A stretch of DNA of 42,863 bases, from UHGV virus genome UHGV-0096616; one strand, written 5' to 3'. The notes beneath the pieces were generated by a model. It saw nothing but the letters and a program-made list of their open reading frames with translations, was not told the origin of the DNA and did no database searches. The first letter of the stretch is position 1. Each line of letters begins with the position of its first letter. The stretch is from a virus. The position numbers and the translations under genes are program-made. Of this stretch, positions 3,123 through 35,884 are shown one piece after another.

Positions 3123-3420
3123 GTTTAGACCTCGATACTTTGAAAATTTGAACGACGTTACCGCGCGTTTTAATAACCGCAGCGAGCATGACAGCGTTGA
3201 TAATGACCTCAGATAAATCCACAGCCATTGGCGTACGAAACCAGATTGCATAGGAGACACGAACCGGAATACTGGCCGCAGCAACAATCAGGAAATAAGC
3301 AAGCCACCCACCCCATCTTCGGTGTTGGGATCCGTTACGCCGGAATGTAACAACGCGAATTGCAATGCCAGTACAAATAACTGCATTGGTGATAAGCAAA
3401 AAAAGCTCATTAGTTACCAT
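3112..3420 (-). CDS. small membrane protein, holin/antiholin candidate (102 aa)
   Basis: 2-3 predicted TM helices; between the upstream holin-like gene and endolysin, overlapping both. Confidence 0.45.
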
Positions 3421-4069: not shown

Positions 4070-6646
4070 CTATTTTAACACCCATCCTGTATTTCCTGTT
4101 CCTGTTTTCTTTTGATACCAATCACCATTATAATCAATGTACATTGACCCCTGAGGTGCGGTCACAACACCCTCAGGTGAACCGGAGCCTCTATAAATTC
4201 CAAAGAGAGTTGTACCTCTTACTTTCTCGTATGCAAACAACAAACCATCTGAAGCCCTTCTGATACGCAACGGTTCGTGCTCTGAGTCCGATGCAAATGT
4301 AGTGGTTCCGTTTGAATCTGTTTCCCTGGAAAAACTTCCATCTGTTCTTGTTCCTTCAATGATCGAATTTGGGTAGTTTGGATCATCAGATGAATGTAAC
4401 CTAATATAGGAACTATTTGATGCTGATACCCCCCTACCCCTTAAAATCAATCCCTTAAATGATGACGTAAATAGTGCCTGGATTGAGCCATAAACAGTGT
4501 TATCACTACCGTTTTGCTGATCGTATATTCTTAATCTTGAGCTATTATCATACATAATAGCTTTGAAGTACTCACCAAGACGTTCGCTAAATGCAACAAT
4601 ATTAAAAGCATTGCGCCATCTAAATGATATATTTCGCCCGCTTTCTCCGGCATCTGCACCTGCATTACTTGAAGCATTGGTTATGCCAGAATTAAGGTTC
4701 TGCTCATCGTTGTTACCAGTCGCTGGTCGTATAGAGTAAATTGTCTTTTTCTCAAGAGAATAGCTACTTCCCCATCCATAATCTATTTCAGGACTCCAGT
4801 CTCCAGAATTTGCATCCTTGGTTGTTTCTACCCAATAAGAGCCATTTGATGGAGGGACACCAATTATTCCAGAAGTCTCAATGGATGATGCAGCCCATCT
4901 TCTTCCACGCCAGTTTACAATATTAGCTCCTGCCCTCCATGTTTCTATGCAGCTTATAATTATTTCTTCACCACGAATAGTTAGACCTTCCGGCTCAAAT
5001 CTGGCTGGATTCCCAAGAGTTGGATGGTTAAGCAACCCATCGCGCCCATATTGCGACCTTGCATCATCGATATCTAATTTTCTTAGTAAATTACCTGTTA
5101 AATCATATGTAAAGATATGATGCTTTCCAAAAGCATTAGCCCCCCCCTTAAGTATATGTATATATCTTCCATCAGACGCAATACCTTGTACAGAGTAAGC
5201 GCCTTCAGAAGGTGAGTCGCTCATTTCCCAAACAAACATGGGGTTTGCTAATGTTTTATCTTCAAGTTTATCAATTGATATTTTATCGTATATAAATACA
5301 GTTCGTTTAGCGGCATCACTCTTTGGTGTATTAACCATTATTAAAAGACGACCGTCAGAAGAAATGGCAATTCCTGCACGATTGTAATCTTGAAATGGGT
5401 GACCGCTACCAGTAATCCCCCATACATTATAACTTTTTACGTCAGACTGAGTTGTTCCTGCCCCTCGCCAAGTTATTTTACTAAACCCTTTGCCTGCAGA
5501 CTCCCCATCTTCACCTGAATTGGTTACACTTGATGTATATAAATATACTTGACCATTCTCCACCATGGCAGAAATATCAAATCCGTGCCCAAGGTTTAAT
5601 TCTGGAGAATACGCAACATGGTTTACTACCCTTCCATCATCATAAAGATTAAACTCAACAATACGAACTCTTTCTTTATCTGACCAGGTTGGCCCAACAG
5701 GCCGTTGTGTGACAAATAGTTTTTCAATGCCATTAACACGGCAATATGCGATCCCCTGTAACGCATTTCTGGCATTAGGATAAATTTCTGTGTTTGTTTC
5801 TCCCTGAAAACCAAAAAAAGGTTCCATCATTTTTCTCTGCACAAGTTTGTCAGTTTCAAGTAGACGAGAAACTGAAATAAGAGATCCATTATCAGCAACA
5901 ATCCTCCCAATACCTTGAACAGAAGATACATCAACTTCGAGAGTATTTACTGCAAAATCGCCATTAGGAACAAACGCTCTGTGGCCTGCATTAGAGAACG
6001 CCTCCGTAGAATCAGTTATTCCATCTCCCTTTGCACCAAAATCGCTAACACTGACGATATCTCTCATCTTATCCTGGAACGTTCGGTATACTGCTCCAGA
6101 ACCATACTGAATAAACCAACCAAAACCACCAACAACCCCGGCGATTGCAGCATCGACATAATTACGCATTGAGCGATTATTTACAGCATCCTGCTCAAGT
6201 GATGGATCTGCAAGGTTAGAAATTCTGTTTTGCTTTGCATCGTAATATTTTGCAAGCAGAGAGGGCTTCATCAATGCACGTCTGAACCACCCAAAACATT
6301 GCTGGATCAGCATCGTCAGATAGTCAAAGGCATCCTCATGCACTTCGGGGAAAAACTTTCCCTGATTGCGAAGGTCTGTCTCCTGCACCACATCAAGCAC
6401 ACGATCTATCGTAATTCGCCAGCCAGCAGCAAGCGGCGACGGAAGAACCACAGAACCGCCACTATAAGTGCCCGCCCCAGTTACCGTATAACCGGTATCC
6501 AGAACCAATTCTGTTACGTTCCCGTTCAGGTCAGACACCTGAACAACCAGGTCGGATTTTTTGAAAATACGGAAGGTATACGGAAATGATGTCGTAACGC
6601 CGTTACCTGTGTATTCGTTGTGGTCAACTTCGGTTGAGACCGTCAT
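4070..6646 (-). CDS. Tail spike / tail fiber (858 aa): T7 gp17-like N-terminal adaptor domain plus beta-helix-like receptor-binding/depolymerase body
   Basis: N-terminal ~120 aa resemble podovirus tail-fiber adaptor domains; DFGAKGDGITD motif typical of tailspike beta-helices; visibly AT-rich; GGAG RBS. Confidence 0.75.
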   Translation of the reverse strand: MTVSTEVDHNEYTGNGVTTSFPYTFRIFKKSDLVVQVSDLNGNVTELVLDTGYTVTGAGTYSGGSVVLPSPLAAGWRITIDRVLDVVQETDLRNQGKFFPEVHEDAFDYLTMLIQQCFGWFRRALMKPSLLAKYYDAKQNRISNLADPSLEQDAVNNRSMRNYVDAAIAGVVGGFGWFIQYGSGAVYRTFQDKMRDIVSVSDFGAKGDGITDSTEAFSNAGHRAFVPNGDFAVNTLEVDVSSVQGIGRIVADNGSLISVSRLLETDKLVQRKMMEPFFGFQGETNTEIYPNARNALQGIAYCRVNGIEKLFVTQRPVGPTWSDKERVRIVEFNLYDDGRVVNHVAYSPELNLGHGFDISAMVENGQVYLYTSSVTNSGEDGESAGKGFSKITWRGAGTTQSDVKSYNVWGITGSGHPFQDYNRAGIAISSDGRLLIMVNTPKSDAAKRTVFIYDKISIDKLEDKTLANPMFVWEMSDSPSEGAYSVQGIASDGRYIHILKGGANAFGKHHIFTYDLTGNLLRKLDIDDARSQYGRDGLLNHPTLGNPARFEPEGLTIRGEEIIISCIETWRAGANIVNWRGRRWAASSIETSGIIGVPPSNGSYWVETTKDANSGDWSPEIDYGWGSSYSLEKKTIYSIRPATGNNDEQNLNSGITNASSNAGADAGESGRNISFRWRNAFNIVAFSERLGEYFKAIMYDNSSRLRIYDQQNGSDNTVYGSIQALFTSSFKGLILRGRGVSASNSSYIRLHSSDDPNYPNSIIEGTRTDGSFSRETDSNGTTTFASDSEHEPLRIRRASDGLLFAYEKVRGTTLFGIYRGSGSPEGVVTAPQGSMYIDYNGDWYQKKTGTGNTGWVLK

Positions 6647-6749: not shown

Positions 6750-6766
6750 ATTACCTTTCGGGTAAT
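6750..6766. promoter_or_regulatory. palindrome ATTACCTTTCGGGTAAT (site 1 of 13), putative operator
   Basis: TTACC-N5-GGTAA dyad; between the tail spike start and the LexA-box gene. Confidence 0.5.
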
Positions 6767-7149: not shown

Positions 7150-7257
7150 ACATCGCACTCCTCTTGTGCCATAGTAATCGGGCACTGGCAAAATCCAGTG
7201 CCGGGATTGGCGTCCCGGATTACTAAAAGGCGCATTCACCGCGCAAGCGGTTTTTTT
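7150..7257 (+). ncRNA. candidate small RNA / attenuating leader: two stem-loops plus intrinsic terminator (ACCGC-gcaa-GCGGT then T7)
   Basis: Hairpins at 7181-7202 and 7201-7218, terminator at 7238-7257, no ORF; sits between the promoter/operator and the Bro-N gene. Confidence 0.35.
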
Positions 7258-7414
7258 ATGCGTATAGCACGGCCACATTCGTATTATGGTGGGCTGTGTG
7301 GGGGCACCGAAAGGTGCGCCGGGTCCTTTTAGCCGGTTACGCCAACCCTGCACAGCTCACCACCAACCGATTGGCGTCGGTAGTGGTGATTAACCAGACT
7401 AAAAGGTAACCACT

Positions 7415-25188: not shown

Positions 25189-25395
25189 TTACTGACCAAG
25201 CAGCGTTTTACCGCCGGTCTTAGCGGTTGATGTGTCGCCCTGAGAACCGGTAAGCAGCGTAGAACTACGACCAGCAGCAGCGCGACGGCGACGAGTTTCT
25301 TCGTCGCGGGCATCAACAACGGCGGCATCCTGCTCCTGTGGTGCTGCCTGAACTTCTGGTGTTGCAGGCACTGATGGTGAGCTACCCATGCACAT
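25189..25395 (-). CDS. small acidic hypothetical protein (68 aa)
   Basis: GGAG RBS; upstream of portal; an alternative overlapping frame exists. Confidence 0.3.
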   Translation of the reverse strand: MCMGSSPSVPATPEVQAAPQEQDAAVVDARDEETRRRRAAAGRSSTLLTGSQGDTSTAKTGGKTLLGQ

Positions 25396-25484
25396 ATCAA
25401 TGACTCCGTACGCAATTAAATTATTACCAATTTAACCACATATGATTTATTTATCGTAGATAGTTGACATTTAACGCACAAATT

Positions 25485-25501
25485 ATTACCTTTCAGGTAA
25501 C
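25485..25501. promoter_or_regulatory. palindrome ATTACCTTTCAGGTAAC (site 4) with -35 TTGACA at 25464-25469
   Basis: Dyad 17 bp downstream of a consensus -35; faces the noncoding leader and tRNA. Confidence 0.5.
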
Positions 25502-25822
25502 CAAAGAGTTCATTCCGGTTACTAACCTGACTGGCTTGTCGTTAAATTGAACAGGTGGAGTGAGCTTTTATTTTGAGCAGTACGGCGTATGGCACATGCG
25601 CCGATAGCGGTCTGGATACGTTTAAGGGGCACCCTCCCTTGCTCGGGCAAACGAACCAGGTAGCCGGAATGTGCAAGTCGAGCGGTTTTATTCCGCGCAC
25701 GGGGATTCACCATCCCGGCGATTCGGTGTGACGCCTCGGAAGAGACGAGGGTACAACGATGAGAGCATTTATGGAGCCGCGACAAAGTGTGGTGCCTTAA
25801 CAGGCTAAGTGCTCTCAGCGTT

Positions 25823-25899
25823 GTGGCATTAGCTCAGTTGGACAGACCAACCGCCTTCTAAGCGGTTGGTCGCAGGTTCGAATCCTGCATGCCACGCCA
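25823..25899 (+). tRNA. tRNA-Arg (anticodon UCU)
   Basis: Cloverleaf read by hand: acceptor stem GTGGCAT/ATGCCAC, T-arm GCAGG-TTCGAAT-CCTGC, anticodon loop CTTCTAA, 3-prime GCCA; one D-stem mismatch. Confidence 0.85.
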
Positions 25900-26062
25900 G
25901 AATCACGCCTAAGGACCGTGATGCCAGAAGTTCCAGGTGCTTGGCGGTGATGGTTTCCCTTGAAGGACTATCACCGCCCTTTTTACAGCAGGACGCCATT
26001 GCGATGACTTCATGCTGTAAACCAGTACAGCCACGGAAGGCATAACTCATTGCTTCCAGTTC

Positions 26063-26086
26063 GCCCGGTTCGCCGGGCATTTTTTT
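26063..26086 (+). terminator. intrinsic terminator (GCCCGG-ttcg-CCGGGC then A-TTTTTTT)
   Basis: Perfect hairpin plus T7 run after the tRNA. Confidence 0.7.
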
Positions 26087-26101
26087 GCTTGATGACCGCA
26101 A

Positions 26102-26118
26102 ATTACCTTAAAGGTATA
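26102..26118. promoter_or_regulatory. palindrome ATTACCTTAAAGGTATA (site 5) inside a promoter (-35 ATGACC 26092-26097, -10 TATAAT 26115-26120)
   Basis: Dyad between -35 and -10 with 17-bp spacing. Confidence 0.5.
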
Positions 26119-26145
26119 ATCATGAAAAACTTCAAGGTAATTAGC

Positions 26146-26940
26146 ATGTTTGAATCGTTTAAAGAGCTGTTTTTATCTACTGCCAATACTGCCGTGAATA
26201 GAGCCAAAAACCCTGTGCTTGGTGCTTTTGTTATGTCCTGGTGCGCCTTCAACTGGAAATCAATTCTTTATCTATTTTTTAGCAAATCAAACATAATAGA
26301 TAAAATTTCATATATCTCAGATAACAGCACATGGAAAACTGTTATGTTTTATCCATGCTTATCTGTAATTGCTATCTGCTGCCTATTACCATGGGTAAAC
26401 AATATCATTAACGTATGGCAAGCAAAGCCTCTTGATAATAATGACTCAATCGAAAATCACCTGAAGGCAAGAAAAATCCAGCGTGAAACAAGACTGCAGA
26501 GGTTATTGGCTAAAAAAGATGTTACATACGACAAAGTTAAGACTGGCGCGGAAAAAGACATCCAAGAGATGAAAGAAGAGATTATTCGATCAAAGAATAG
26601 TATGGGGGAATTGACTGCCGAGTTGAAAGCTAAAGATGACGAATTGAGATCCGCCAGTGCTCAGTTAGCAGCTCTAAATCATTCATTAAAAGAGATATCG
26701 GAAACTCTTGGAAGAATGAATGAGGCATATAATACCCTCCAAAATGATTTCGACGAATACAAACTCAAATACCCTGAAAAATCTCAAATAAAAAGCCTTG
26801 CACTTGGCAACGGCCAAACAATTAGCAACTTTTTGGAGCAACACAACTTATCCGGATTAAAATCTGGTAAGCCAAACGTTTTTAATAACTTTGGTGTTCT
26901 ATCTGGATTATCAGGTTTCGAGGATAAAAATAAAGACTAA
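26146..26940 (+). CDS. AT-rich accessory (moron) membrane protein with long C-terminal coiled coil (~264 aa); candidate superinfection-exclusion/abortive-infection factor
   Basis: Two predicted TM helices then coiled coil; visibly low GC; opposite strand to the late operon; own promoter and terminator; start set at ATG 26146 (AAGG RBS) because the track start at 26122 abuts the -10. Confidence 0.5.
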   Translation: MFESFKELFLSTANTAVNRAKNPVLGAFVMSWCAFNWKSILYLFFSKSNIIDKISYISDNSTWKTVMFYPCLSVIAICCLLPWVNNIINVWQAKPLDNNDSIENHLKARKIQRETRLQRLLAKKDVTYDKVKTGAEKDIQEMKEEIIRSKNSMGELTAELKAKDDELRSASAQLAALNHSLKEISETLGRMNEAYNTLQNDFDEYKLKYPEKSQIKSLALGNGQTISNFLEQHNLSGLKSGKPNVFNNFGVLSGLSGFEDKNKD

Positions 26941-28412
26941 GCATATGGATCGTACTCGGTAAGCGCCTTGCCTTGCTGGTTCTGCTGCCCGGGAAGTCGC
27001 AGGCGCTTTGACACCGGGAAAGCAAACGTCAGCAGTAGCGCATCGCCTTTACCCGGCGAACGCCCAAGCCGCTCCTTGATATCTTCCTTCGGTTCGATAA
27101 CGATTTTACCGTCCACTCGAACTTTGTACTCTGCCGCCGACAGGTCGTCCGCTGTTTCCTGGTCATCCAGCATGCCGCCCAGCCTCAGCCATGTCTTGCA
27201 TGCATTGAACATCTCCCCACGCTTGTTAAGCATCTGCGGGTCAGTGGACGCACCGCCGAACGGAACAAGTTGCCATGTACGTCCCCAGCCATCACCGATT
27301 GACTTCAAACCGGTTCCGTAACCGAAGTCGATGAACACCGCGTCAGCCTGGTACTGGTCTTCAAAGTCAGCGATACGCTTCGCCATAATCAGATCGTCGG
27401 TGGTCTTGTTGCCAGTCCACAACACCTTACTGTGCAGCCCCTGCCGCAGGTATATCACAGCGTCATCAACGCCGGAGTATGCAGGGTCAACGCCGATTAT
27501 CACCGGAGCATGTGCCACCTGCGCAGCAGTTACCACCCGTTTCATTGCCTCGTCAGTAAGACCGGTAGGGATAAACTGCAATTCAGATGCATCAGGGAAT
27601 ATGCCGCGCACACGGATTTTAACGAAGTCGCTGTCTTCCCCGTAGTCATCAACCCATTTCTGCAACTGCTGTTTGTTGGTGCCTTCCACCGTCCGGCTGT
27701 CAATCTGCGCAGTTTTCCAGCGGTGTTTATATTTGCGGAAACATTCGCGGAAACGCCCGGTATTACGCGTCGGGTTCCCGAACGCCACCCAGATGATTTC
27801 GGTGTCTTCGTCCGTCAGCGCACCCTCTGCTACCTCCCACACCAGATCGGCAATGTTGGATGCTTCGTCGAAAACCACGATGATGCGTTTGCGCTCGTTG
27901 TGTAGTCCGGCGAATGCCTCAGTGTTGTGCTCAGACCAGGGGATTGCGTCAGCTCGCCACCGCTTGTCGTGCCCAGGATCATTGCTGTACATCGCGGTAG
28001 CGGTACAGGTAAACCAGTCTTTCGTGATGGCAAGGTTCGACCACTTGATAATTTCCGGCCAGGTCTTCGTTCGTAGCTGGTTGTCGGTGTTGGCGGTCAC
28101 CACGACCTTACAATCCTCGCAAGTGGACATGCCCCAGTTGATCAGCATTGAGATGAATGCGGATTTACCAATACCGTGACCAGAAGCGCGTGCCAGCATA
28201 AGCGGCTGATATCGCGTCTCTGGATTCTGCAGGTGATCACGTATCTCTCGGAACGCATCGGCCTGCCACTGACGTGGACCGGTGGCATGTGCCAGTTCAG
28301 TACCCTCTTCCCCCCACGGGAACGCATAGAGGGCATAGCCAAGCGGATCGTGAGTGAACCCTGCAATATCCTCGATCAACTGCTCTTCAGGAGATAACGC
28401 TGTATCTGTCAC
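26937..28412 (-). CDS. terL: terminase large subunit (491 aa)
   Basis: Walker A-like ASGHGIGKS in the N-terminal ATPase, acidic nuclease-type C-terminal half, position after terS. Confidence 0.85.
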   Translation of the reverse strand: MTDTALSPEEQLIEDIAGFTHDPLGYALYAFPWGEEGTELAHATGPRQWQADAFREIRDHLQNPETRYQPLMLARASGHGIGKSAFISMLINWGMSTCEDCKVVVTANTDNQLRTKTWPEIIKWSNLAITKDWFTCTATAMYSNDPGHDKRWRADAIPWSEHNTEAFAGLHNERKRIIVVFDEASNIADLVWEVAEGALTDEDTEIIWVAFGNPTRNTGRFRECFRKYKHRWKTAQIDSRTVEGTNKQQLQKWVDDYGEDSDFVKIRVRGIFPDASELQFIPTGLTDEAMKRVVTAAQVAHAPVIIGVDPAYSGVDDAVIYLRQGLHSKVLWTGNKTTDDLIMAKRIADFEDQYQADAVFIDFGYGTGLKSIGDGWGRTWQLVPFGGASTDPQMLNKRGEMFNACKTWLRLGGMLDDQETADDLSAAEYKVRVDGKIVIEPKEDIKERLGRSPGKGDALLLTFAFPVSKRLRLPGQQNQQGKALTEYDPYA

Positions 28413-35299: not shown

Positions 35300-35884
35300 A
35301 TGAAAAGTATCCAGGACGTCCGCAGGCAAAATCTCAACGACTTGATCGACCGTGAATTCAATGGTGTTCAGACGCGGATGGCTGAAAAACTTGGAACTCA
35401 GGCAAATCTGGTAAACCGCTGGGCTCTTGGTAAGAAGGTTATCGGCGATCAGGTTGCGCGAAAAATTGAAGCTGCCGCCAATAAACCCCGTAACTGGCTT
35501 GATATCGATCGCTCGCTTTCTCAGGAAGGTTTTCAGCCTGTCGGCCCAAGCGACATTGGCCAGCTGGCGGCTCACAACCTGGAACGCTGGATGAGCGAAA
35601 GCCGCGACCTTTCAACACAGGGAAAACTTCACCGCGCATCCGGCGTAGCCCAGGTGACAATCAGCCGCCTGTTAAACAATGAGGTCAGCGTTTCCATTTC
35701 CACCCTGGAGAATGTTGCATCCGCATTCGGGCGTCACGGCTATGAATTACTGATTCACCCGCACGACCCTGCGACCATCAACTATGATCGCTCGCGCTAC
35801 GCATTGTTACCCGAAACCGAGAAAGCAAAGATCGAAAGTTACATTGAATTTGTCATCAACCAGAACGAAAAAAACAAACAATAA
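35300..35884 (+). CDS. CI-like prophage repressor with two HTH domains and no S24 peptidase domain (194 aa)
   Basis: Two XRE-type HTH segments; divergent from cro-like operon; followed by a terminator. Confidence 0.6.
   Translation: MKSIQDVRRQNLNDLIDREFNGVQTRMAEKLGTQANLVNRWALGKKVIGDQVARKIEAAANKPRNWLDIDRSLSQEGFQPVGPSDIGQLAAHNLERWMSESRDLSTQGKLHRASGVAQVTISRLLNNEVSVSISTLENVASAFGRHGYELLIHPHDPATINYDRSRYALLPETEKAKIESYIEFVINQNEKNKQ

Follow-up and report, generated by a model that had tools for sequence, protein, structure and literature searches.

What is encoded by some 320 nucleotides (nt) of GC-rich DNA that follow a phage promoter, hold no convincing open reading frame (ORF) and end at a tRNA gene? 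The question is raised by the viral genome UHGV-0096616, analysed here as one stretch of 42,863 nt (the window). In it, a plus-strand unit made of a leader, a structured core RNA, a hairpin termed P6, tRNA-Arg(UCU) and a small RNA (sRNA)-like module with a terminator is flanked by a small minus-strand gene ahead of the portal gene (25189-25395) and by the minus-strand large terminase gene (26937-28412). Within this RNA-unit region the window prophage is ~99% identical to phiV10 and TL-2011b, epsilon15-like phages of the genus Uetakevirus. Comparative analysis indicates a non-coding region under an operator-controlled promoter, and the structured RNA encoded there very probably is a product in itself. 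An earlier, sequence-only reading had suggested a processed regulatory RNA in the leader of the tRNA; the structured RNA stands, and processing and regulatory action enter below as predictions.

The region upstream of the tRNA encodes a conserved structured RNA

In an alignment of 50 non-redundant core homologues (A3), 94.7% of the cells at paired positions hold standard pairs, compared with 25-47% when the structure is slid along the sequences. Thirteen of the 30 pairs have changed on both sides, in 123 cells, a count that inflates the number of independent events, the loci being related; none of 500 shuffles reached the observed values. The second of two proposed pseudoknots, PK2, changes from C-G to A-U in what look like three or more separate lineages (the mEp460 type, Kosakonia and Buttiauxella). 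PK1 is invariant across A3, and covariation is uninformative on it either way. Covariation supports the fold of the core and one of its two proposed pseudoknots, and the local inverted repeats that had been noticed in the single sequence are real helices. The constant U-G and G-U pairs (U-G in 47-50 of 50 rows) would be A-C on the other strand and so identify the plus strand as that of the RNA. With 60% G+C the core agrees with the GC-rich leader described before, and it holds ~45 invariant bases.

Our model of the core (R1) scores the window site at 141 bits and finds no other copy in the window; no genome region scanned yielded more than one copy. Many loci had been retrieved through a 17-mer in the near-invariant segment J2/3, so its invariance was rechecked with an independent P4/PK2 pattern. 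The 14 new full-length members obtained in this way carry at most one substitution in J2/3, or two in one case, and the exact 17-mer is present in all 12 loci found by BLAST.

In the window, the 5' leader segment GUUCAUUCCGGUUAC (25508-25522) is complementary to the invariant junction GUAGCCGGAAUGUGC (25660-25674) at 14 of 15 positions, including 2 G-U; this complementarity is limited to the window's lineage, and other epsilon15-like phages have not conserved it. The apical loop of P2 reads UCC(C)UUG in 41 of 50 representatives (A3 columns 38-93), and the same motif occupies the loop of the window terminator (25955-25965). It is similar to an anti-Shine-Dalgarno sequence and may serve as a seed for pairing. 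Mimicry of rRNA was rejected, as matches to the K-12 rrnH operon are short, at chance level and partly in variable parts of the RNA.

A protein-coding gene was also rejected, in agreement with the earlier view that ~320 nt lack a convincing ORF. The minus-strand ORF 25522-25785 (87 amino acids) starts at TTG, and neither this frame nor the plus-strand ORFs have a Pfam match. Across 30 homologues the longest open frame switches strand and frame, and 320 of 470 indel runs in the homologue comparison (68%) are not multiples of 3 and would shift any frame.

Rfam 15 returned no family for the leader (25416-25822) at the gathering threshold or at E<=10, in the window and in 10 homologous loci. The sequence-only reading had counted such a lack against a structured RNA; the lack is real, yet taken in that way it would have wrongly discarded an RNA whose structure covariation demonstrates. 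A full-text search of the accessible literature yielded no description of the core RNA, which does not prove that none exists. The Pas sRNAs of the Storz laboratory are unrelated and located in the Q/lysis region.

The core recurs in unrelated temperate phages

When the leader alone was used as a BLAST query, unrelated phages matched it at 70-84% identity. Among them are lambdoid and Stx2 phages (mEp460, cdtI, 2H10, Ayreon, mEp390 and Stx2a, Stx2c and Stx2k phages), in which the module directly follows the gene for the cI-type repressor, with the same orientation, behind the terminator of that gene and just after paired OL-type operators (TTGC-N7-GCAA) that also occur at OR. Its position behind the OL/PL operators makes it the first element of the PL transcript. 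Phages P1, P7, D6 and SJ46, and also RCS47 and 591 plasmids (most of them the size of P1 and non-mobilizable), carry it between tRNA-Ile and ban, in the C1-controlled ban operon, and epsilon15-like phages of Klebsiella, Salmonella and Enterobacter have it at the same portal/terminase position as the window. Klebsiella phage SopranoGao provides it with its own TG-extended promoter, whose start is 0-2 nt before helix P1. In these unrelated phages the module is always on the transcribed strand of an early unit; a repressor-controlled or early promoter has been shown only in the epsilon15-like, lambdoid and P1 settings.

The core alone was matched in about a third of complete E. coli genomes (1836 of 5426); its 2467 sites there include 554 on plasmids. 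It is absent from CPS-53 of K-12. The exact 17-mer was found in >120 IMG/VR contigs and ~20 contigs from Enterobacterales species genomes; matches in species genomes outside Enterobacterales were rejected as chance or as a Bacteroidales gene, with the rest of the RNA missing. The RNA family was found in Enterobacterales phages only, plus one phage labelled Stenotrophomonas. In this phage (BUCT708, our locus L008; loci are numbered with the prefix L), core and RprA-like module are near-identical to Klebsiella and Enterobacter versions, which makes one ask whether the host label is correct or a transfer occurred recently. Among the E. coli matches listed, none has an annotated feature beneath the core, and in the one fully inspected prophage PGAP marks the tRNA only.

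The earlier assignment of the leader to the tRNA does not hold: the module is independent, mobile and mostly without a tRNA. tRNA-Arg follows the core in 27 of ~150 loci and a tRNA-like element or something else in 71, and in phage P1 the tRNA precedes the core. On this comparative evidence the core represents a real family of structured RNAs, widespread among temperate phages of enterobacteria and apparently in no catalogue, with a function that is probably accessory.

An operator-bearing promoter precedes the leader

Both the consensus -35 and the operator proposed from the single sequence were located in front of the leader (Table 1). The sole possible -10 is TACCTT (25487-25492), 17 nt from the -35; because it matches the consensus at 3/6 positions only, a simple promoter scan missed this promoter. 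The operator palindrome overlaps this -10 as well as the putative transcription start at ~25499-25501. Its motif, TTACC-N5-GGTAA, occurs at 16 sites in the window against 0.64 expected. Sites flank a helix-turn-helix repressor gene (35300-35884) on both sides, and others front the C4/isrK region. The enrichment together with the sites around the repressor gene identifies the motif as the prophage operator, and the leader promoter should therefore be silent in the lysogen and fire upon induction. In epsilon15 the equivalent site is annotated as a repressor binding site.

Alignment of five epsilon15-like phages from E. coli, Salmonella, Klebsiella and Enterobacter hosts (A4) shows near-invariant promoter and operator, and a spacer of ~30 to 230 nt between promoter and RNA. 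The window leader is a P6-like hairpin module in decayed form, which is intact in phages Tyrion, PAT1 and epsilon15. The ORF downstream of the RNA unit has its own operator-bearing promoter, so the unit in the window is self-contained.

P6 joins the core to a tRNA or a tRNA-shaped element

The P6 hairpin is 89% paired in alignment A2, where five pairs have changed on both sides. It ends on tRNA base +1, and 78 of the 105 distinct loci share the junction at its 3' end (GUUG, then UGG). Past this junction comes tRNA-Arg(UCU) in the tRNA-Arg loci and, in most of the others, a tRNA-like element. The 3' strand of P6 is boxA-like (UGCUCU) and reads UGCUCUUU or UGCUCUC; it is base-paired within the hairpin, and some members have CGCCGUUUCC instead. 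A possible mini-ORF of uncertain status lies inside P6, just ahead of the tRNA that reads AGA, with GAGG 8 nt upstream of its AUG, within P5. AUG-AGA is found in 26 of 28 tRNA-Arg loci, an association confounded by phage lineage, and the AUG is missing from the AGGUAAGAGCA variant of P6.

The minimum-energy fold of the tRNA-like element is a cloverleaf with an acceptor-like stem, GUGGUG/CACCAC. Its first hairpin, for example GCGCA-GGCUGA-UGCGC, has compensatory variants (GCACA/UGUGC, GGCGG/CCGCC); variable middle arms follow, and the last hairpin directly adjoins the acceptor strand on the 3' side. A canonical T-arm (GGUUCGAUUCC) or D-arm persists in some copies, and the elements end in AAC, not CCA. 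In SopranoGao (L009 2439-3210), ~800 nt are filled by back-to-back RNA modules, namely the core and three units of P6 plus tRNA-like element, the last with a canonical D-arm. The annotated protein SopranoGao_1 overlies these modules and is probably spurious.

A predicted operon of non-coding RNAs that releases a trans-acting RNA

We propose that several non-coding RNAs are made from the unit as one operon in the early lytic phase, and that cleavage at the tRNA or the tRNA-shaped element releases one of them as an accessory RNA acting in trans, a reading to which we give a probability of about 0.45. In the lysogen the prophage repressor would occupy the operator across the -10 and +1. After induction, sigma-70 polymerase would make the leader, core, P6, tRNA-Arg(UCU) and the RprA-related hairpin-terminator module in this order, with the tRNA, or the tRNA-shaped element in most other phages, acting as punctuation. 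As P6 abuts tRNA base +1 exactly, RNase P is the obvious candidate maker of the 3' end of core plus P6; its predicted cut at base +1 would yield an RNA of ~240 nt (~320 nt with the leader), and maturation of the tRNA 3' end would release the sRNA-like piece downstream. The freed core RNA, horizontally mobile and presumably stable, would then act in trans on a component conserved across Enterobacterales. The C4 RNA of P1 and P7 is a precedent for maturation of a phage regulatory RNA by RNase P, and an RNA of the C4 family is present in the window (Rfam).

Some phages do without the core. In Lys8385Vzw, PL feeds straight into a tRNA-like element with no core or P6, and the same terminator and 100%-identical early genes follow. 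Epsilon15 (L243 2633-2725, minus strand) carries a deletion between two 13-nt repeats, UUCCCUUGAUGCU, at the P2 apex and the terminator loop. Promoter, operator, P6-like leader and helix P1 are still there; most of the core is gone, as are P6, the tRNA and the sRNA module. Judged by these genomes, the core behaves as an optional, mobile, early-expressed accessory module. The two phages, the separate promoter of the downstream ORF in the window and the antisense course that read-through would take into the terminase gene weigh against an essential role in cis.

Other observations weigh against a trans-acting RNA. In lambdoid phages the core stands in the place of nutL/N or putL, and early-left transcription has to cross a terminator downstream of it; P6-like modules also occur beyond that terminator, so read-through matters there. 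Phage P1 has a short upstream ORF, coupled to ban, right next to the core, and no P6, tRNA-like element or terminator comes after the core, an arrangement that suggests a cis element more; in L072 the core directly precedes a ribosome-binding site and an ORF. A search of the window for sequences complementary to J2/3 returned only the lineage-specific site in the unit's own 5' leader and identified no target, and the relatedness of the loci tempers the covariation counts as stated above. We nevertheless favour a trans-acting RNA over a cis element, a riboswitch, a scaffold or an attenuator, and leave the remaining probability to other mechanisms.

A bolder version would make the core a novel type of phage RNA effector, early, mobile and protein-free, that binds some conserved part of the host machinery and disables or re-programs it; candidates are RNA polymerase with its Nus factors, the ribosome, and defence enzymes that sense RNA or target tRNA. 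The operon would be a self-processing array whose tRNA-like units serve as cleavage signals or decoys. This version is tentative, and on balance we find it rather doubtful.

Alternative explanations

The alternative that survives best, unlikely as we judge it, is that the core, alone or with the boxA-like strand of P6 and Nus factors, is a put- or nut-like cis element for elongation that brings about terminator read-through or Rho exclusion. Its setting fits: in each of the three main contexts it is promoter-proximal on early transcripts, with intrinsic terminators and protein genes still to come, and in lambdoid phages it stands where nutL/N or putL would be, in PL operons in which no N gene is annotated. 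The strong conservation across host genera would suit a target such as RNA polymerase, and the arrangement in phage P1, next to the ORF coupled to ban, is the best argument for a role in cis. The mEp phage collection was isolated as Nus-dependent (PMC11893012); mEp460 and mEp390 themselves are not named in that paper.

A possible resemblance to the boxB-boxA elements of lambda nut and rrn lies in the boxA-like UGCUCUUU, which is followed after ~14 nt by the conserved hairpin GCGCA-GGCUGA-UGCGC, and in the GAAGAGA or GAAAGA loops of P5 and many downstream hairpins, reminiscent of boxB. Locus L091 (~3350-3420), like L035, has a hairpin behind the core and then a perfect rrn-type boxA, UGCUCUUUAACAA, in the boxB-boxA order of rRNA leaders. 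Unlike in lambda, the boxA-like strand is sequestered in P6 and is not universal, no N-like gene was found, and an Arg-rich frame across the hairpin is not conserved when the hairpin covaries.

With putL and putR of HK022 the core shares being an RNA-only element that starts the PL transcript of a lambdoid phage without N, before terminators. The put RNA is ~70 nt long, forms two stem-loops and is present in two copies per genome (PMC9378689), whereas the core is 169 nt long with two proposed pseudoknots, occurs once per region scanned with no second copy in the rightward-operon stretches scanned, and is optional in near-identical phages. Homology to put was rejected on account of this architecture and the single copy; a scan of the HK022 immunity region (27.6-33 kb) with model R1 also gave no match. 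Against elongation in cis it also counts that Lys8385Vzw passes the same terminator into its early genes, that epsilon15 is viable without most of the core, and that processive read-through in an epsilon15-like phage would run antisense into the terminase gene.

We think it very unlikely that the core is a ligand- or factor-sensing element of riboswitch type in the 5' untranslated region of the next gene. A multi-helix junction with two pseudoknots and ~45 invariant bases has the complexity of one, and in phage P1 (short upstream ORF and ban) and L072 the core lies directly upstream of coding sequence. Yet the element that follows is mostly a tRNA, a tRNA-like element or more structured RNA rather than an ORF, the downstream genes are unrelated between contexts, and no riboswitch in Rfam matches. 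Nor is there a conserved expression platform, as no alternation of terminator and antiterminator and no sequestration of a ribosome-binding site is seen after P5.

Little speaks for a mere long pre-tRNA leader, or processing scaffold, offering sites to RNase III and RNase P, and we regard it as highly improbable. P6 does adjoin tRNA base +1, and the P6-like leader hairpin is marked as an RNase III site in the epsilon15 annotation, but most loci have the core without a tRNA, in phage P1 it is downstream of the tRNA, and a mere scaffold would not call for two pseudoknots and ~45 invariant bases, which unrelated phage families have conserved at 70-84% identity. The weakest candidate, an attenuator that senses the supply of tRNA-Arg(UCU) through stalling at the AUG-AGA mini-ORF (25759-25764) and remodels P6 and the tRNA junction, can appeal to the upstream GAGG and to the frequent AUG-AGA (AUG-AGG in the mEp460 type), but founders on an AUG that belongs to a helix kept by covariation, 34 loci without any AUG, peptides of 5 to 53 codons with no conserved sequence, a putative ribosome-binding sequence paired in P5 and an association that tracks phage lineage.

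Features of the unit and its downstream modules

The coordinates of all elements are collected in Table 1.

Table 1 Elements of the plus-strand RNA unit in the window.
Element	Position	Strand	Basis or remark
-35 hexamer TTGACA of early promoter	25464-25469	+	Read from sequence; TTGAC invariant in 5 epsilon15-like phages
Prophage-repressor operator TTACCTTTCAGGTAA	25486-25500		Motif enrichment, invariance in relatives, epsilon15 annotation
Non-conserved 5' leader (decayed P6-like hairpin module)	25500-25582	+	Alignment A4; epsilon15 sequence and annotation
Conserved RNA core, ~169 nt, five helices and two proposed pseudoknots	25583-25751	+	Alignment A3, covariation
P1	25583-25590 with 25596-25603	+	Loop GGCAC
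PK1 (proposed)	25592-25595 with 25671-25674	+	P1 loop GGCAC can kiss AUGUGC in J2/3
P2	25611-25615 with 25656-25660	+	Encloses variable arm, loop with UCC(C)UUG
J2/3, near-invariant GGUAGCCGGAAUGUGCAAG	25659-25677	+	Alignment A3
P3, variable hairpin	25682-25685 with 25693-25696	+	
P4	25702-25705 with 25713-25716	+	Loop UUCACCA
PK2	CACC 25708-25711 with GGUG 25725-25728	+	Covariation-supported
P5	25734-25738 with 25746-25750	+	Loop GAAGAGA
P6 hairpin, CAACG-AU-GAGAGCA ... UGCUCUC-AG-CGUUG, variable apex	25754-25823	+	Alignment A2
Possible mini-ORF AUG AGA GCA ... UAA, 13 codons, inside P6	25759-25800	+	Read from sequence, status uncertain
tRNA-Arg(UCU), CCA end encoded	25823-25899	+	ARAGORN; Rfam tRNA (RF00005) 62.5 bits, threshold 29
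3' sRNA-like module	25901-25984	+	Terminator scan; alignment with K-12 RprA
Hairpin AUCACG-CCUAAGGAC-CGUGAU	25902-25922	+	Opens 3' sRNA-like module
Intrinsic terminator and U-tract	25943-25978 and 25980-25984	+	Terminator scan
Second conserved non-coding module (CAGCAGGACGCCAUUGCGAUGAC...)	25985-26086	+	Terminator 26063-26078 and U-tract at end

The predicted tRNA and the terminator behind it were both confirmed, the former by ARAGORN and Rfam. The window tRNA has a C11:C24 mismatch in its D-stem (position 24 = 25846), with GACC where 29 of 29 relatives have GAGC, and it scores 62.5 bits in Rfam against 68-71 bits in relatives; this copy may be impaired. Codon use bears on the earlier suggestion that the tRNA reads rare AGA codons in late or moron genes. 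E. coli K-12 uses AGA at ~2 and AGG at ~1 per 1000 codons, and the 31 window ORFs use them at 7.2 and 3.9 per 1000. Of the 52 Arg codons of the tailspike gene (4070-6646), 19 are AGA and 9 AGG, and 5 of the 8 in the moron ORF (26092-26940) are AGA; the capsid, portal and terminase genes show no such concentration. A use of AGA/AGG about three times that of K-12, with its focus on tailspike and moron, fits the earlier suggestion; with its D-stem mismatch, the function of the window tRNA is less certain.

The tRNA, or the tRNA-like element in its place, is followed by a conserved hairpin (AAUCACG...CGUGAU) and then a terminator. The homologous module of L008 (2631-2750) matches the whole Rfam model of RprA with 50.2 bits (E=2e-5), under the gathering threshold of 70; like RprA, the L008 and L099 modules align over the entire model and have AAUUGCUGUGUGUAGUCUU and the terminator. 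A graded series of alignments leads from K-12 RprA to the window copy, which forms the diverged end and, unlike RprA, has lost the seed segment GCUGUGUGUAGUC. At 25901-25984 RprA (RF00034) gives no Rfam match at E<=10, and the relatedness is seen by graded alignment only. Either such phages carry RprA-like sRNAs or RprA may derive from a phage module of this kind.

The sequence at 25985-26086 is also found downstream in L005, L006, L046, L087, L103, L153 and epsilon15, is common to SPN1S and Klebsiella phages, and has Rfam matches at chance level only at E<=10; it may be another small RNA. Downstream of the core in L008, L099, L136 and L138, untranslated early-left leaders contain at least six short hairpins with GAAAGA loops per locus (CCGG-GAAAGA-CCGG and the like), which look like repeated binding sites for a putative factor.

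Elsewhere in the window, the Hfq-binding RNA isrK (7182-7257, 77.9 bits) lies directly 5' of the C4 antisense RNA (7282-7367, 79.2 bits), and operator sites at 6751 and 7131 precede them in an arrangement that resembles the immI module of P1. The pair is also present in the rightward operon of mEp460 and Stx2a_1447, both carriers of the core. The ban operon of P7 (L004) contains an unannotated tRNA-Ser/Sec-like gene at 1352-1439 (ARAGORN tRNA-Ser(tga); Rfam tRNA-Sec, 46.6 bits) and a sub-threshold STnc100-like RNA at 1549-1664 (43 bits).

Relation to known RNAs and significance

The nearest known kind are the ornate phage and prophage RNAs GOLLD and ROOL, which are mainly found outside Enterobacterales. 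These are encoded by phages and prophages, often beside tRNA genes, contain multiple pseudoknots and have no known function; in GOLLD, tRNAs are sometimes covalently linked within the RNA, and expression is tied to lytic growth (PMC12286853). The core is likewise phage-encoded and adjacent to tRNAs. It differs in size (~170-250 nt versus ~580-800+ nt) and has no match in Rfam 15 although both families are included there.

A structured non-coding RNA directly 5' of a tRNA or tRNA-shaped element, with cleavage that is predicted here, also recalls tRNA punctuation. RNase P cuts the C4 RNAs of P1 and P7 and the CI RNA of P4; further cases are MALAT1-mascRNA and the T4 stable RNAs C and D, which lie in a tRNA cluster and, like the core, are phage-encoded and co-transcribed with tRNAs. 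The core has no sequence relation to C4 itself (Rfam). ARAGORN found no transfer-messenger RNA (tmRNA) in the window; a tmRNA has a tag reading frame enclosed by its tRNA-like domain, and the core lies outside the tRNA-like element. The antitoxin RNA of a type III toxin-antitoxin system has short tandem repeats and is followed by a terminator and a conserved endoribonuclease toxin gene; the core has no tandem repeats and its downstream genes differ between contexts; in the window, 26122-26940 has a sub-threshold Pfam match to UPF0242 only, and the downstream gene in a Klebsiella phage is DUF2829.

If this analysis is correct, a covariation-supported, pseudoknotted RNA lies unannotated in P1 and P7, in Stx2a, Stx2c and Stx2k converting phages and in the phiV10-type phages used for O157 typing, and P1 together with E. 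coli genetics would give a tractable entry to the role of large structured tRNA-linked phage RNAs. The modular non-coding-RNA architecture could explain the long "empty" PL leaders of lambdoid phages without an N gene, and the hypothetical proteins mEp460_037, Tyrion gp54 and SopranoGao_1, which overlie such RNAs, are flagged as mis-annotated. Should the core act as an effector, textbook phages and a third of E. coli genomes would carry an unrecognised RNA module for host manipulation, a possible proteobacterial counterpart of GOLLD and ROOL.

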